A stretch of 55,792 nt of DNA from Clostridia bacterium (lineage in GTDB: Bacteria > Bacillota > Clostridia > Oscillospirales > CAG-272): positions 1 through 55,792 of the forward strand of contig JAFXKJ010000156.1 of the NCBI GenBank assembly GCA_017531765.1, written 5' to 3'. The notes below the pieces were generated by a model that worked only from the letters and a program-made list of their open reading frames with translations, did no database searches and was not told the origin of the DNA. The translations under genes were made by a program, and so were the position numbers. Shown here one piece after another: positions 7,808 to 43,228 of this stretch. Every line of letters begins with the position of its first letter. The first letter of the stretch is position 1.

Positions 7808-8938
7808 TTACTTCTTTTCCTCGATCAGCTTTTTTATATCTTTGTAGATCAGATCGTTTGATCCTTCCACGGCGAATTCTCTTATTCTCTCTGACATTAT
7901 CCGTCTTTCATTCTCGCCTTCATCGGAAAGGAGACCTGCCACGGCATCAATAAGCACACCTGTGGAGTTTGCAAGCTCGCTCTCCTCGAACACAAATGCC
8001 GCACCCGCATCGGCAAGAACCTTTGCGTTCTTGTACTGATGATTCTCGGTTACGTTGGGAGACGGAATGAATATGGGACACTTCCCTGCGGAAGCAAGCT
8101 CCGATATTGTAAGCGCACCCGCACGGCAGATTATAATATCAGCCGCCGCCATTTTAACGGGCATATCGTAGATATACTCAACAAGCTGAAGGTTTTCGTA
8201 TTTCGTAAGCCCCAGCTTTTTGAACTCTGCCTTGGCAATATCTCTTTCAATGGTACCCGTTGCATGGATGTGAAGCACCTCGGGATGCTTTGAAGAGTAG
8301 CTCTTCATCAGTTTAAGGACAGCTTCGTTGACCTTTTCGGCACCAAGACTTCCACCATAGGAAAGGATTATCTTCTGATATTTAGGATCGATCTTAAGCT
8401 TTTCTCTTGCCTCTTCTCTTGTGAGACGGGCAAAATCACCCGAAAGCGGATTTCCCACTCTGAGGAGCTTATCACGGCACTTCAACGTTTTTCCCGTTGC
8501 CTCAAAGTTAAGGTATATTCTATCAACCTTATCCTGAAGCATCTTTACAGCCACGCCTGCTATTGCATTGGATTCATGGAGCACGCAGGGCACGCCCATC
8601 ATTGATGCCGCTTTAACTACGGGCCAGCATACGTATCCACCCGTTCCGATCACAATGTCTGGTTTGAATTCACGGATGAGCTTTTTAGCCTTATATGGGG
8701 ACGTTGCGGCAAGCCAAAACGCTCTGATATTTGCAGGAGAGAGAGAACGTCTGATACCGCGGATGTCCACGTGGCGAAGCTCGTAGCCCTTTGCGGGAAC
8801 CAGCTTATTTTCGATGCCCCGTGAGGTTCCGACGAAAATGATCTCGGAATCCGGCTCGTATTTTCTGATTGTTTCAGCGATGGACAGCGCGGGATTAACG
8901 TGGCCTCCCGTACCTCCGCCCGTCAAAATAACTCGCAT
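7808..8938 (-). CDS. murG: MurG GlcNAc transferase (start moved to MRVIL)
   Basis: GGGTGGHVNPA, GTGGYV, HESN, GGSLGA, CRAGA, HQYKNA. Confidence 0.97.
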   Translation of the reverse strand: MRVILTGGGTGGHVNPALSIAETIRKYEPDSEIIFVGTSRGIENKLVPAKGYELRHVDIRGIRRSLSPANIRAFWLAATSPYKAKKLIREFKPDIVIGTGGYVCWPVVKAASMMGVPCVLHESNAIAGVAVKMLQDKVDRIYLNFEATGKTLKCRDKLLRVGNPLSGDFARLTREEAREKLKIDPKYQKIILSYGGSLGAEKVNEAVLKLMKSYSSKHPEVLHIHATGTIERDIAKAEFKKLGLTKYENLQLVEYIYDMPVKMAAADIIICRAGALTISELASAGKCPIFIPSPNVTENHQYKNAKVLADAGAAFVFEESELANSTGVLIDAVAGLLSDEGENERRIMSERIREFAVEGSNDLIYKDIKKLIEEKK

Positions 8939-19724: not shown

Positions 19725-20510
19725 TCACAATATTTTTTTAATTCGCTCCGTCTCTTTGCGGAAAAATTCCGCGTAGCTGTCAAAATTTTCGTTTTCCATC
19801 ACTTCGATAAGAGACATTGCACGATCTATCTCACGTATTGCGCGGGAGTTTTCCCCAACGAATTCGTAATACTCCGCAGTTTTGAAGATCATCTGAACAA
19901 GATTCTCAAAGGAGATCCACTTTTGCTTCTCTGCGGCATCAAACATAGGCTTTCCCTCGAGCAGATACGCCACTTCAGTTAGTTTTGTGAAGTAAATTTC
20001 GGGAATCTGCTCCACCGCGGCTTGGGCGCTCACCAAATCACCCTTGGCTTTATAAGCGTAAGCGAGGAATCTGAGGGCATCGTATTTCACGTCGGGCATT
20101 ACGGTTTTTGTGGCAAGCTTCGACGCCAATGCTATGGTCTCGTCGGGATTTTCGCTGTAGTTTATGACGTAGAGAAGATTGTTTAAGAGAATATCGCTTG
20201 AGGGGTATTTTGCAAGTCCCTCTTCAAGAATACGCCTCCCACGGGCAGGGTCGCTTTCCCTGTATTTATACGCTTCACTGCAGATCTTCTCGATCTCCGA
20301 ATCCGCCTCTCGCAAATTGAAGTCAAACAGCTCGTCAAGGGTTACTCCGAAATACGCCGCAAGTGACGGTGCTATGGTAATGTCGGGCAGACTTATCCCA
20401 CATTCCCATTTACTCACTGCCTGGAAGGTCACACCTATGCTGTCGGCAAGCTGTTCCTGGGTTACGCCCCGTCCATGTCTGAGTTCTTTAATTTTATTTC
20501 CGATATTCAT
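19725..20510 (-). CDS. XRE-family HTH regulator with TPR-like C-terminus (start moved to MNIGNK)
   Basis: IGNKIKELR..TQEQLA..VTFQAVSKWECGISLPDI. Confidence 0.85.
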   Translation of the reverse strand: MNIGNKIKELRHGRGVTQEQLADSIGVTFQAVSKWECGISLPDITIAPSLAAYFGVTLDELFDFNLREADSEIEKICSEAYKYRESDPARGRRILEEGLAKYPSSDILLNNLLYVINYSENPDETIALASKLATKTVMPDVKYDALRFLAYAYKAKGDLVSAQAAVEQIPEIYFTKLTEVAYLLEGKPMFDAAEKQKWISFENLVQMIFKTAEYYEFVGENSRAIREIDRAMSLIEVMENENFDSYAEFFRKETERIKKIL

Positions 20511-20620
20511 ATTTTTGATCATGCCTTTCACCATCATGTTATCGTAAGGCGGCGCCTGCCTTCCGATTTGATTATAGCACAGGAGGCATAGTGGGTCAAT
20601 AAACGGCTGAGTTACGTTTT

Positions 20621-40861: not shown

Positions 40862-41158
40862 ATGGATAACAACGAAATCTACGATCCTGAAATTTATACA
40901 CTGACAGACGAGGACGGAAACGAGCTTAATTTTGCTCTTCTCGCATCTCTTGAGCACGAGGGCGCTGAGTACAAGGCTCTCATTCCCGTTGACGAAAACG
41001 GCGAGGAGACCAGCGACGAGTACGTAATTCTCAAGGTTGGTACAGATGAGGACGGCGAGGCTGTTCTTGAGACCATCGAAGATGACGACGAGTTCGACAG
41101 AATCGCTGACATTTTCGACGATGAGTTCGCTGACGTTTTCTACGACGATCAGGACTGA
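40862..41158 (+). CDS. DUF1292-like acidic protein
   Basis: TLTDEDGNE.F, Y.AL.P, LETIEDDDEFDRI; promoter TTGACA-17-TAAAAT at 40782-40810. Confidence 0.8.
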   Translation: MDNNEIYDPEIYTLTDEDGNELNFALLASLEHEGAEYKALIPVDENGEETSDEYVILKVGTDEDGEAVLETIEDDDEFDRIADIFDDEFADVFYDDQD

Positions 41159-41169
41159 TTTTCAAAAAA

Positions 41170-41386
41170 GAACCCTGCGGTGTTCGACCGAAAGCGATAA
41201 AAACCCACAAAGAGTAAAAAGGAGCCCGGGCTTCGCACGTGAGGATGCAGACCTCCCTTTATCTCCATCGCGCATTCTGCGCCTCTGAGGTAAAAGGAAG
41301 CTGGGAGCACGAACCGTACGAGAGGGCACCGCCCTTGCAGAAGAGCAGGGTTTCTTCTTCGCTTTCATCGGCACACGCGGGGATTT
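41170..41386 (+). ncRNA. ssrS: Probable 6S RNA
   Basis: About 215-nt rod: 5' CCCTGCGGTGTTCGACCGAAAGCGA pairs with 3' TCGCTTTCATCGGCACACGCGGGG; A-rich internal bubble; GGAGC and GGGCACC elements typical of Firmicutes 6S. Confidence 0.7.
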
Positions 41387-41390
41387 TATT

Positions 41391-41514
41391 TTTCAACATG
41401 ATTAGCAAAATCATGTTGAAAGTGAAATATCATGATTCGTTGAATCATGATATGAAATTTTCGGCTTCGCCGAAAGTGAAATTGATATTCGCAAAATGCA
41501 AATATCAGTGAAAT
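41391..41514. repeat. Array of four hairpins each followed by RTGAAAT
   Basis: Hairpins 41391-421, 41429-451, 41459-475, 41483-507; linkers GTGAAAT/ATGAAAT at 41422, 41452, 41476, 41508. Confidence 0.85.
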
Positions 41515-41559
41515 ATTTTCTTTTGTCGATATGACAAAAGAAAATGTGAGGTAATTATT

Positions 41560-41988
41560 ATGGAGAATTTTAATGAGTATTTTTTGAAAGATCGTAGGGT
41601 CTTTCTCGAAAACATAAACTACGAAACAGTCAAGGCTGAGACCATGGAGCCTCAGCGGCGTCTCGGGTGTCGCGATACTGTGGTAGCTCAGCTCATCGGG
41701 GATCGCGGTGTTAAGATAATCTTCAACAGAAGGCTTAATTTTGAACCTGAGGCTCTCTTCACCCTCTCAGTTTCATTCGGAGTGTTCCTCCGTTTTGATC
41801 CTACACGTTACGGTGAAGTGAATTGGAAAGAGGTAAACATAGTCAAGCAGTTTACAAGTGACTGCCCTGCTCTCATGAGTGAGCTTAACGCGAGAACGAC
41901 CATGATGGTGGCTCAGATTACAGCGGCATCAGGCGGTGTGCCTATCGTTACGGGTAATCCTCACGATGCCAAAGGAAATACACAGTAA
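41560..41988 (+). CDS. Hypothetical protein, possibly SecB-like fold
   Basis: 142 aa; beta-rich N-terminus, FTLSVSFGVF, C-terminal AQITAASGGVPIV. Confidence 0.6.
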   Translation: MENFNEYFLKDRRVFLENINYETVKAETMEPQRRLGCRDTVVAQLIGDRGVKIIFNRRLNFEPEALFTLSVSFGVFLRFDPTRYGEVNWKEVNIVKQFTSDCPALMSELNARTTMMVAQITAASGGVPIVTGNPHDAKGNTQ

Positions 41989-42021
41989 AAAATCGTACTT
42001 CGCATTGAAGTACGATTTTTT
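41987..42021. terminator. Bidirectional terminator
   Basis: AAAAAATCGTACTTC-GCATT-GAAGTACGATTTTTT between convergent genes. Confidence 0.9.
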
Positions 42022-42088
42022 ACTGCAATGATGGGATTGTCACATTTAGATTGAGAAGACGTATACCTCGTCAGAGATATATCTTTTA

Positions 42089-43072
42089 TCAAAGCATACT
42101 TGCTCTCAGCTCATCTGCGCTCTTCATGCTGAGATATGCGGGAGCGATGTCGAACACTGTCTTACAACCGCTGACGCCCTCTGTGTGAAGTCTGAACGCC
42201 GCACGTGCATATGCTACGATGACGGAAGCTGTAAACTCGGGATTGGAGTCAAGCTTTAAGCTATATTCGATGATGTGATTATGCTCAAGATCAAAGCCTG
42301 TTTTACCGGAACGGATAACGAAGCCTCCGTGGGGGATACCGCTATGCTCACGGAGAAGCTCTTCCTCCGTAATAAAATGGACTGTTGTGTCGTAATCCGC
42401 GAAGTAGTTTGGCATTGTCTTGATCTCGCGCTCAATACGTTCAAGGTCAGCGCCCTCCTCGGCTACCACAAAACACTCGCGTATGTGCTTCTCACGTGTG
42501 GTAAGTTCGGGAGCAGTACCGCTTCTTACTGCATCCAGTGCACTTTCCACAGGAATGGTATACTGTTTTCCGTTTTTAACTCCGTCAATTCTGCGGATAG
42601 CATCGGAGTGACCCTGGCTTACGCCCTTACCCCAGAAGGTATAATCCTTACCGTCGGGAAGGATAGCGGATGCGTAAAGTCTGTTGAGCGAGAACATTCC
42701 CGGGTCCCAGCCGACAGATATAATGCCAACCTTACCCGATGCCCCTGCTGCCTTGTCAACAGCGGCAAAATGCTGTGGGATCTTCGCGTGAGTGTCAAAG
42801 CTGTCAACTACGCAAAAATGTTCAGCAAGAGCCGGGGTCTGCACAGGCAGATCGGTAGCACTACCTCCGCAGAGGATCATAACATCGATCTTATCTTTCA
42901 TACTGAGAACGTCATCCGCGGAGATCACGGGAACGCCTTCTGTCATAATTTTCAAAGTATTCGGAGCACGGCGAGTAAATACTGCCACAAGTGTCATATC
43001 AGGGTTCTGCCTGATGGCAGCTTCCACACCTCTGCCGAGATTTCCGTAACCGAATATACCAATACGAATCAT
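42089..43072 (-). CDS. ddh: meso-Diaminopimelate D-dehydrogenase
   Basis: GYGNLGRG, CGGSATDL, DSFDTH, GWDPG, FWGKGVSQGHS, PHGG, SNPEFTA. Confidence 0.96.
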   Translation of the reverse strand: MIRIGIFGYGNLGRGVEAAIRQNPDMTLVAVFTRRAPNTLKIMTEGVPVISADDVLSMKDKIDVMILCGGSATDLPVQTPALAEHFCVVDSFDTHAKIPQHFAAVDKAAGASGKVGIISVGWDPGMFSLNRLYASAILPDGKDYTFWGKGVSQGHSDAIRRIDGVKNGKQYTIPVESALDAVRSGTAPELTTREKHIRECFVVAEEGADLERIEREIKTMPNYFADYDTTVHFITEEELLREHSGIPHGGFVIRSGKTGFDLEHNHIIEYSLKLDSNPEFTASVIVAYARAAFRLHTEGVSGCKTVFDIAPAYLSMKSADELRASML

Positions 43073-43228
43073 TTGAATCAATACCTTTCTTTAGGGTGTC
43101 AAAAGACACGAAAAAACTATGCTATATTCTATCACAAATTTTATGAAAATTCAATCGTTACGGTAAAATATTATAAAAATTATGTCTTCGAGTCAAGCCT
43201 GACACTTCACCCGTATATTCTTGAGCCC

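Follow-up and report, generated by a model that had tools for sequence, protein, structure and literature searches.

Repetitive extragenic palindromic (REP) elements, known also in clusters as bacterial interspersed mosaic elements (BIMEs) and as inverted doublets (REPINs), lie at the 3'-ends of genes and between the genes of operons, and they stabilise RNA. The Gut-1 RNA (Rfam RF01706) was published with a seed alignment showing a hairpin-GUGAAAU-hairpin build (Weinberg 2010, Genome Biol 11:R31, PMC2864571) and, in the accessible part of that paper, was rated a certain RNA, not cis-regulatory and confined to 'human gut only'; its Rfam type is 'Gene; sRNA'. No function is given in the searched literature that names Gut-1 RNA, the Gut-1 motif or RF01706, where apart from the original description it appears only as a benchmark for folding, and searches for GTGAAAT with hairpins, for tandem hairpins in Clostridia and for REP elements with REP-associated tyrosine transposases (RAYTs) in Firmicutes returned no description of such arrays. 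Here we analysed a 55,792-nucleotide stretch of DNA from a Clostridia bacterium (contig JAFXKJ010000156.1; hereafter the window), in which the hairpins at 41391-41545, directly behind a 6S RNA gene, are a four-unit copy (five hairpins together with an older leader) of a dispersed intergenic Gut-1 repeat of gut Clostridia. Gut-1 is catalogued but functionally unexplained, and it behaves here as a dispersed intergenic repeat and not as a lone small-RNA gene.

Sequence inspection and a repeat finder located four perfect or near-perfect hairpins at 41391-41514 of the + strand, each followed by the heptamer RTGAAAT, and a pattern scan placed the starts of these linkers at 41422, 41452, 41476 and 41508. 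Hairpin 1 (41391..41421), obtained with the repeat finder and by folding, had a 13-bp stem (41391-41403 / 41409-41421, 100% complementary) with the loop AGCAA, and was followed by the linker GTGAAAT (41422..41428). Hairpin 2 (41429..41451), obtained in the same two ways, had a 10-bp stem and the loop GTT; the repeat finder reported it within a longer 21-nt inverted repeat (41418-41462), and its core (CATGATT...AATCATG) repeats that of hairpin 1 in diverged form (19 nt, 79% identity). Behind the second linker (ATGAAAT, 41452..41458) the repeat finder placed hairpin 3 (41459..41475), with a 7-bp stem (41459-41465 / 41469-41475, 100%) and a C-TTC-G triloop, the sole unit of the window with the typical Gut-1 form. 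The third linker (GTGAAAT, 41476..41482) led to hairpin 4 (41483..41507; repeat finder and folding) of 10-11 bp, whose 11-nt arms (41483-41493 / 41497-41507) were 91% complementary, the single mismatch being C.A on the + strand and a G.U wobble when the - strand was folded; the fourth linker was again GTGAAAT (41508..41514). The repeat finder also gave a hairpin 5 (41515..41545) with a 13-bp stem (41515-41527 / 41533-41545, 100%) and the loop GATAT; it is probably an ancestral feature, the leader hairpin of the gene downstream. It is followed on the + strand by GTGAGGT (41546..41552), a linker-like heptamer with 5/7 positions matching the RTGAAAT type, which is the Shine-Dalgarno sequence of the open reading frame (ORF) at 41560 and is the same in the closest relative. 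The initial annotation of this DNA had correctly described four hairpins with a 7-nt linker, stems that vary while pairing is kept (here 91-100% complementarity) and the one mismatch in the last of the four stems; it had overlooked the perfect fifth hairpin.

When the segment 41385-41565 was folded, the + strand reached -65.7 kcal/mol versus -32.6 +/- 3.5 for shuffled sequences (z -9.4) and the - strand gave a z of -11.1, with 0/200 shuffles equalling the fold on either strand. RTG-AAA resembles a start codon followed by Lys, and three of the linkers in the window are in frame; a coding reading of the linkers was rejected on the spacings of the array on contig C59 (25, 20 and 18 nt), which are not multiples of three.

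The Gut-1 covariance model matched positions 41420-41519 (+) over its full length (model positions 1-77) with 44.0 bits and an E value of 1.3e-7; the - strand scored 13 bits. This is below the gathering cut-off of 50 bits, at which the window yields only 6S RNA, because the stems of the window copy are atypically long and AT-rich and carry odd loops (AGCAA, GTT, AAAAT and GATAT). In the source genome (2.23 Mb, 160 contigs, 74.8% complete) there were 16 Gut-1 matches at E <= 0.01, and 7 arrays other than that of the window scored above the cut-off (51.5-73.2 bits). The window array is a divergent member of Gut-1, assigned not on the Rfam cut-off but on its sister arrays and on its build, in which four RTGAAAT linkers and five hairpins answer to the Gut-1 pattern of at least three unlike hairpins joined by GUGAAAU. 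The arrangement had been put forward as new, with the proviso that a match to a described Rfam family would remove the novelty; the Gut-1 match and the sister arrays above the cut-off therefore remove it. The array shares with the published family the three or more short unlike hairpins joined by GUGAAAU, the longer first hairpin and the occurrence in gut bacteria, and the model aligns end to end. It departs from it in that Rfam lists a small-RNA gene, whereas we found a dispersed, polar and often paired intergenic repeat of 4-6 units with several linker variants, and in that the hosts are not restricted to the human gut stated in the accessible part of the paper, since among the named matches listed the metagenome-assembled genomes (MAGs) with true arrays came from ruminants, horse, chicken and people.

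Other copies had been predicted for this genome, and about 19 arrays were found in it. Nine clusters held at least three RTGAAAT words with hairpins between them, two of these being one locus on overlapping contig ends. Different linkers characterised the arrays on contigs C155 and C89 (GTGATAT), C127 (GCGATAT), C120 (GTGAAGY), C145 (GAGATAT/CGATAT), C109, twice, and C4 (RTGAATT) and C130 (GCTAAAT). The linker word was uniform within an array and differed between arrays, although mixed arrays also exist (C80 of the source genome and C129 of the related genome G019); the part constant across linker types was a G-A core, with a consensus of about RYGAWDT. A linker-blind census (at least three hairpins 5-9 nt apart) pointed to GCTAAAT and TGAAT as further linker types, its 95 matches versus 50 in a shuffled genome being too noisy to be used for counts.

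The pattern TGAAAT-N11-32-TGAAAT-N11-32-TGAAAT gave 286 matches in 29/41 related genomes, with up to 44 in a single genome, versus 4 for the reversed pattern; the equivalent TGATAT triple was also found in 29/41 genomes, versus 3 for its reversed control. The proportions of the linker types varied by genome (44 TGAAAT vs 11 TGATAT matches in G016, 5 vs 48 in G027). In a class-wide sample of 151 genomes, Gut-1 was detected at E <= 1e-5 in 30, with 21 above the cut-off, and its spread was patchy at the family level (5/5 genomes in two families, 0/5 in others). A scan of named records gave at least 123 loci, many of them chance tandem repeats; among the matches listed, those with true arrays were mostly MAGs of Clostridia, Eubacteriales, Oscillospiraceae, Ruminococcaceae, Acutalibacteraceae and Christensenellaceae from animal and human guts. 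True RTGAAAT arrays were also seen, among the same listed matches, in MAGs labelled Akkermansia or Akkermansiaceae (L015, L020, L082) and in one labelled Bacteroidaceae (L012); arrays in records of other phyla could reflect horizontal spread, independent origin or mis-binned contigs. Carriage of the arrays by phages was considered and rejected, as only 3 true hairpin arrays were present among the 117 viral-contig pattern matches listed.

To describe the repeat unit we used 251 distinct units flanked by RTGAAAT, among which no conserved stem sequence was found, the linker and the loop type being what they had in common. Stems measured 4-8 bp in 240/251 units, and 1478/1544 pairs (95.7%) were Watson-Crick, with 17 G.T and 26 A.C pairs among the others; at the foot of the stem there were 9 A.C pairs and 0 G.T pairs. 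Terminator-like hairpins of the source genome, collected by a crude screen, had 134 G.T vs 65 A.C pairs. Triloops were present in 160 units (64%) and tetraloops in 91. The commonest loops were of the form C-TNC-G (TTC 49, TGC 30, TAC 9, TCC 7), together with TTT (15) and the C-TNNC-G tetraloops TTGC (11), TTAC (9) and TAAC (7).

The arrays were strongly oriented with respect to genes. Raw-ORF orientation of 96 arrays was dropped as noisy, long spurious antisense ORFs being frequent, and verified neighbours were used for the source genome and for nine paired loci. All 18 source-genome arrays with a verified upstream gene were in sense to it, and none lay inside a verified coding region; one further array (C15, + strand) had no clear upstream gene. 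Eleven of the upstream genes were verified by Pfam (purH, pfkB kinase, tRNA U5-methyltransferase, a pyridoxal-phosphate enzyme, YlbF, an AddB-like nuclease, a GFO/IDH/MocA oxidoreductase, MatE, BrxC/D, an AAA_14/DUF4143 ATPase and Exo_endo_phos), and seven were stable RNAs recognised with Rfam or as tRNAs (6S, tRNA-Asn at the 5S end of an rRNA operon, twice, tRNA-Thr, tRNA-Leu, tRNA-Ser and another tRNA). Eight arrays, that of the window included, were shortly followed by a gene on the same strand, as at purH-purD, pfkB-fba, an addB-addA-like pair and 6S-ORF142, the gap from the array being 59 nt to purD and 216 nt to the class-II aldolase gene. These eight very probably lie inside transcripts, and from gene context the arrays in general are likely to be transcribed on their sense strand. 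The array on C89 sits between a stop codon and a canonical terminator. Where two arrays were adjacent they converged (+ then -) in 19/19 pairs of the 151-genome sample, two pairs being found in the source genome; among the true arrays in the named-record matches listed, 9/10 opposite-strand pairs converged, the exception having its halves 250 nt apart. Both halves carried the same linker type in every pair inspected. In two unrelated MAGs a convergent pair stood directly before a small gene for a 23S_rRNA_IVP four-helix bundle (PF05635; L019:792-1154, -; L057:1016-1390, +).

The array between pfkB and fba allowed a comparison of orthologous copies, since it was present in five congeners (the source genome, G009, G003, G019 and G016) whose flanks were 81-90% identical, with five hairpins in each. 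The units were compared after splitting at the linkers, the MAFFT alignment not being structure-aware. Linkers were exactly GTGAAAT in 18/20 cases, so that the linker conservation noted at first in the window extends across five species. Hairpin 2 was identical in 5/5 genomes, and hairpins 1, 3, 4 and 5 showed paired compensatory changes, for example TTGCCC/GGGCAA vs TTCTCC/GGAGAA, the exceptions being one broken hairpin (G019) and, in G003, a sense-strand U.G pair. Downstream of the last hairpin the DNA of the five genomes could not be aligned. Exact linkers and compensatory stems beside unalignable DNA therefore indicate selection on the sequence of the linker and on pairing.

Between purH and purD the array was present in the source genome (G000), G003, G008 and G016. 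It was lacking in G011, which belongs to the same genus and has a 25-nt spacer there, and most other genera lacked it too (spacers of 7-83 nt). In G008 all five linkers were GTGATAT, yet hairpins 3 and 4 were the same as in G003, a concerted change of the linkers, and the last unit was present in one additional, diverged copy. Gain of units by local duplication is visible, as read from the sequences, in this G008 array and in hairpins 1 and 2 of the window with their shared 19-nt core.

At the site behind the 6S gene, nine congeners, the clearest-matching of 18 with a match, were compared with the window, and in 9/9 the 6S gene was followed by the ORF within about 20-70 nt and the array was absent; a check for empty-site alleles in relatives, suggested at the outset, had thus a clear outcome. 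The closest relative, G009 (91% identity), reads GGGGGT-ATTTTGT, then only the leader hairpin (TTTTTGC ctcaa GCAAAAA), TAAAC and GTGAGGT. The window reads GGGG-ATTTTAT-T, then the four units, ATTTTCT-TTTGTC and further on GTGAGGT. This comparison marks the four units as additional DNA of this lineage and hairpin 5 with GTGAGGT as older. The absence from nine congeners would most simply reflect a gain in this lineage, the alternative being loss elsewhere. The array probably arose at the DNA level, by insertion of a block or by local duplication of units. The heptamer ATTTTAT (41383..41389, +) may be the left copy of a 7-nt duplication whose right copy is ATTTTCT and of which G009 has a single ATTTTGT; the flanking ATTTTNT words could be a target duplication, a weak indication in so T-rich a context. 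The arrays on C145, C89 and C120 have no counterpart in G009 either, where the whole 3' flank of these loci, including the terminator, differs. BLAST of the flanks of relatives' arrays against the source genome returned known orthologous arrays only and no new empty sites.

Taken with these results, our tentative preference, which we hold at somewhat less than even confidence, is that a Gut-1 array is a REP/BIME-like repeat that would be transcribed with its upstream gene and would serve as a barrier at RNA ends or as processing punctuation. An RNA-level role in the sense orientation is favoured because of the 18/18 polarity, the arrays within operons, the selection on a single-stranded heptamer and the Clostridial precedent for intercistronic hairpins. 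In the window the array occupies the short spacer from the 6S terminator to the ribosome-binding site of the next gene, which has the same orientation, and would be transcribed in sense along with the upstream gene. The single-stranded linker, with its G-A core, would be a sequence-specific site, most likely one for cutting by an endoribonuclease or for binding, and the stable hairpins could block exonucleases from either side of a cut in the linker. In this way the upstream RNA, here 6S, and the downstream message might meet separate fates. RNase Y, for its part, cuts after G. As regards the precedent, internal terminators are reported to set gene ratios within operons in cellulolytic Clostridia (PMC9045158), and the accessible part of that study reports hairpins between operon genes with unequal levels of the neighbouring messages; Gut-1 arrays stand at junctions of this kind (pfkB-fba, purH-purD, 6S-ORF). 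The hairpins and terminators described there are single and locus-specific, unlike a repeat family with a constant linker, and no experiment in the part accessible ties Gut-1 to them. Of the functions suggested for the array initially, processing sites in RNA and a mobile hairpin repeat still lead, and the stand-alone sponge finds no support in arrays that lie in operons and behind terminators.

Several observations weigh against this preferred role in RNA. Arrays are dispensable, the four of the source genome in the window and on C145, C89 and C120 being absent in the closest relative. Many arrays follow a canonical, often two-way terminator, as is usual behind stable RNAs, and little sense RNA is expected there. 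The far half of a convergent pair runs antisense to the gene upstream, and does so even where both flanking genes point the same way, as at purH-purD in G021 (ATGAATT/AATTCAT) and at L021, L057 and L019. Six or more linker types are present in one genome. There is no excess of wobble pairs on the sense strand, and the stems resemble DNA palindromes rather than RNA helices. The loops, too, favour the other strand or DNA, since they read C-GNA-G and C-GNNA-G on the opposite strand; very stable DNA mini-hairpins take this form, as do GNRA-like loops. Contigs from RNA libraries (four runs of three studies) covered only 40889-41329, that is, the DUF1292 gene and the 6S core (41197-41329) of relatives with 90-99% likeness, and stopped at 41329, short of the array; the runs with relatives' 6S were labelled bovine or gut metagenomes, and the strain itself was absent from them, so that this coverage carries no information on whether the array is transcribed.

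The main rival to such a role, which we consider possible but doubtful, is that the array is a selfish or neutral DNA repeat resembling REPINs or miniature inverted-repeat transposable elements, spread in trans by some enzyme or through template switching, accumulating behind terminators because insertion is harmless there, and devoid of a role in RNA. It would account well for the presence or absence of arrays between close relatives at four loci and for the lack of the purH-purD array in most other genera, for near-perfect Watson-Crick palindromes without wobble bias, for convergent pairs whose halves share their linker type as the arms of a REPIN do, for the possible 7-nt duplication around the window copy and for the many arrays at contig ends of draft assemblies. 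A further sign is a repeated hairpin arm: downstream of the last hairpin, the right arm (7 nt) of the first small hairpin is found again in 8/95 arrays exactly and in 22/95 with one mismatch, the corresponding figures being 0/95 and 7/95 for the second hairpin and 0/95 and 5/95 for the third. In a subset of arrays the recurring arm runs on into the complement of the first linker, forming a 13-14-bp outer helix that may be a closing stem or may mark where a block was inserted into a hairpin. Yet the exact linkers at an orthologous locus in five species, beside diverged DNA, point to host selection; the sense orientation of 18/18 single arrays is not predicted by harmless random insertion; and with hairpin sequences that are not conserved a transposase would be left with 7 constant bases to bind. 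True arrays are, besides, few among the viral-contig matches listed.

The comparison with REP systems bears on the same question. Gut-1 arrays resemble REPs, BIMEs and REPINs in being extragenic palindromes at 3'-ends and between operon genes (18/18), in clustering with constant linker motifs, in forming inverted doublets, in their presence or absence between close relatives and in the RAYT-like gene of the source genome. REPs have a conserved palindrome with alternating neighbours, whereas Gut-1 has differing palindromes, a constant 7-nt linker and direct units within the array, and no conserved palindromic unit sequence was found among the 251 distinct units. The RAYT-like tyrosine transposase ORF of the source genome (170 aa; G000:C94, about 20000-20540, - strand), counted as a point for the selfish repeat, scored 60.9 bits with NF047646, below the cut-off of 80, and 20.7 bits with Pfam Y1_Tnp; no Gut-1 array lay within 3 kb of it. 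Among 16 RAYT-like loci in relatives only one (G003:C52, within ~300 nt) was near an array, which is at chance level because the repeat follows many genes, and the REPIN-RAYT link was rejected. Three genomes (G014, G018, G036) have 14-34 pattern matches and no Y1 match, and G034 has several Y1 matches and no RTGAAAT arrays (one RTGATAT-pattern match); co-occurrence of RAYT or Y1 with arrays was not found across the 41 genomes, a test limited by their draft state. The suggestion of a linked nuclease or transposase therefore failed on both counts, as the annotation of the neighbouring genes gave none adjoining the window array and the RAYT-like genes do not track the arrays.

It seems unlikely, though of some interest, that Gut-1 arrays form a distinct intergenic class, other than small RNAs, that is polar, seeded at terminator hairpins, grows by duplication of units, moves as blocks, pairs convergently and is kept by a linker-specific factor. 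Blocks would move by way of the 7-nt duplication or the closing helix, the 7-nt linker would be family-specific in convergent pairs, and the factor, a nuclease on RNA or an enzyme on single-stranded DNA, would read the linker beside any hairpin. If this were true, recognition of a 'structure-plus-heptamer' with concerted evolution of the linker would be at work, host selection and self-propagation both acting.

A protein-binding DNA element at gene ends, with the linkers as duplex sites for gyrase, for a polar roadblock or for a nucleoid protein that would act on supercoiling or on polymerase stops at the meeting points of transcription units, is quite improbable. Gyrase binds BIME-2, and arrays do occur downstream of stable-RNA genes with high transcription and where convergent units meet; pairs in opposed orientation are reminiscent of polar barrier sites, the conservation of the linker is sequence-specific, and stems with Watson-Crick pairs only would fit duplex DNA. 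No protein stands out as a candidate, however; the same genome contains several linker words, the variable palindromes between the sites would have no role, and roadblocks within operons such as purH-purD and pfkB-fba would stop needed transcription.

We regard as very improbable a function as reverse-facing mini-terminators, in which GC-rich hairpins of the - strand, with GNA- or GNRA-type loops and with AUUUCAC behind each, would stop antisense or convergent transcription into the upstream gene and paired halves would stop transcripts that had passed the other half. Three - strand hairpins of the window were called terminator-like by a simple scan, the stable loop types are on that strand, the mismatch of hairpin 4 becomes G.U there, the stem feet show 9 A.C and 0 G.T pairs, and single arrays in sense within operons would let transcription of the operon itself pass. 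But the - strand linkers (ATTTCAC, ATATCAC, ATATCGC, ATTTAGC, ACTTCAC and AATTCAT) keep T-C and not a U-run, 0/18 single arrays face so as to terminate their own upstream gene, and in a convergent pair each gene would uneconomically use the far array. An ordinary intrinsic terminator was rejected, as had been argued from the window at first: the + strand hairpins are each followed by RTGAAAT, with no U-run, and the - strand ATTTCAY has three U only, which the variants do not conserve.

That the array is its own gene, a stand-alone small RNA or a sponge whose GUGAAAU sites titrate an RNA-binding protein, is hardly credible in spite of the Rfam type 'Gene; sRNA', the rating as a certain, not cis-regulatory RNA in the accessible part of Weinberg 2010 and the resemblance of repeated single-stranded sites between hairpins to known sponge RNAs, because an array that starts 3 nt after the 6S match and ends at the next ribosome-binding site cannot accommodate a promoter of its own, a genome has about 19 such arrays in operons or downstream of terminators, close relatives differ by their gain and loss, and several linker words occur side by side in a genome. 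CRISPR (clustered regularly interspaced short palindromic repeats) arrays likewise alternate a constant short word, uniform within an array, with variable inserts; Gut-1 has an unstructured constant word of 7 nt, with palindromes of 11-31 nt as its variable parts. This candidate was rejected on the repeat of 7 nt instead of 23-50 nt, the absence of a leader and of cas genes nearby, and the dozens of tiny arrays per genome behind genes.

The window copy by itself matters little, being a lineage-specific copy of a catalogued repeat at a site where nine related species do not have it. The family is common in uncultured gut Clostridia, where its arrays stand at the ends of genes for tRNA, rRNA and 6S as well as of ordinary genes, and its linker is under selection. 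A decision between RNA punctuation and DNA propagation would explain a recurrent feature of gut-microbiome genomes and many contig breaks in their assemblies, and the puzzles worth following are those of the family: the uniformity and concerted change of the linker, the obligate convergent pairing, the asymmetry of the loops and the gain of blocks.

The 6S RNA gene upstream of the window array (41169..41387, + strand) matched Rfam RF00013 with 47.2 bits (gathering score 46.4; E 2.1e-6), as the '6S-like RNA' of the initial annotation had anticipated, and ends with a closing stem and a T-run; the array begins 3 nt past the end of this match and runs to the ribosome-binding site of the next gene. 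That gene is an ORF of 142 aa (41560..41988, +), for which Pfam and NCBIfam searches gave no match. It follows just behind 6S in 9/9 congeners compared (with an extra gene between in G016), and the conservation of this order suggests that 6S and the ORF may form a conserved transcription unit. The gap between the two is only tens of bases in the nine congeners. A comparable arrangement of a 6S gene and the gene that follows it is ssrS-ygfA in E. coli. The genes around the array are thus DUF1292, the 142-aa ORF of no known family and a diaminopimelate dehydrogenase gene (42089-43081, - strand), convergent with the ORF. Between these last two, at 41981-42027, there is a strong two-way terminator-like hairpin of 20 pairs.

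Some further repeats were observed beside the arrays. Behind the pfkB-fba array of the source genome (G000:C154:11732-11912) lies another dispersed repeat, about 50-85 nt long and not related to Gut-1, with more copies at C80:5744-5827, C124:15759-15840, C142:118-191, C58:3632-3678, C98:44160-44205, C8:21165-21217 and C9:6463-6512; it has many copies in the source genome and in G009 and is not at the pfkB-fba site in G009, G003 and G019. Downstream of tRNA-Ser, at L388 (G003:C87), L389 (G008:C103) and L391 (G016:C10), the last ~18-20 nt of the tRNA recur ~200-250 nt further on, a pattern resembling the scar left by integration of an element at the tRNA. Five near-identical modules of three hairpins (caacaaccgtaggttgttg / ttcgcgaagcgaa / ggatatccatatcc) were present in the source genome at C9:8891-8950, C58:18-77 and 8495-8554, C151:170-228 and C156:274-333; several of these copies are at contig ends, and the module is probably the end of another multi-copy element.

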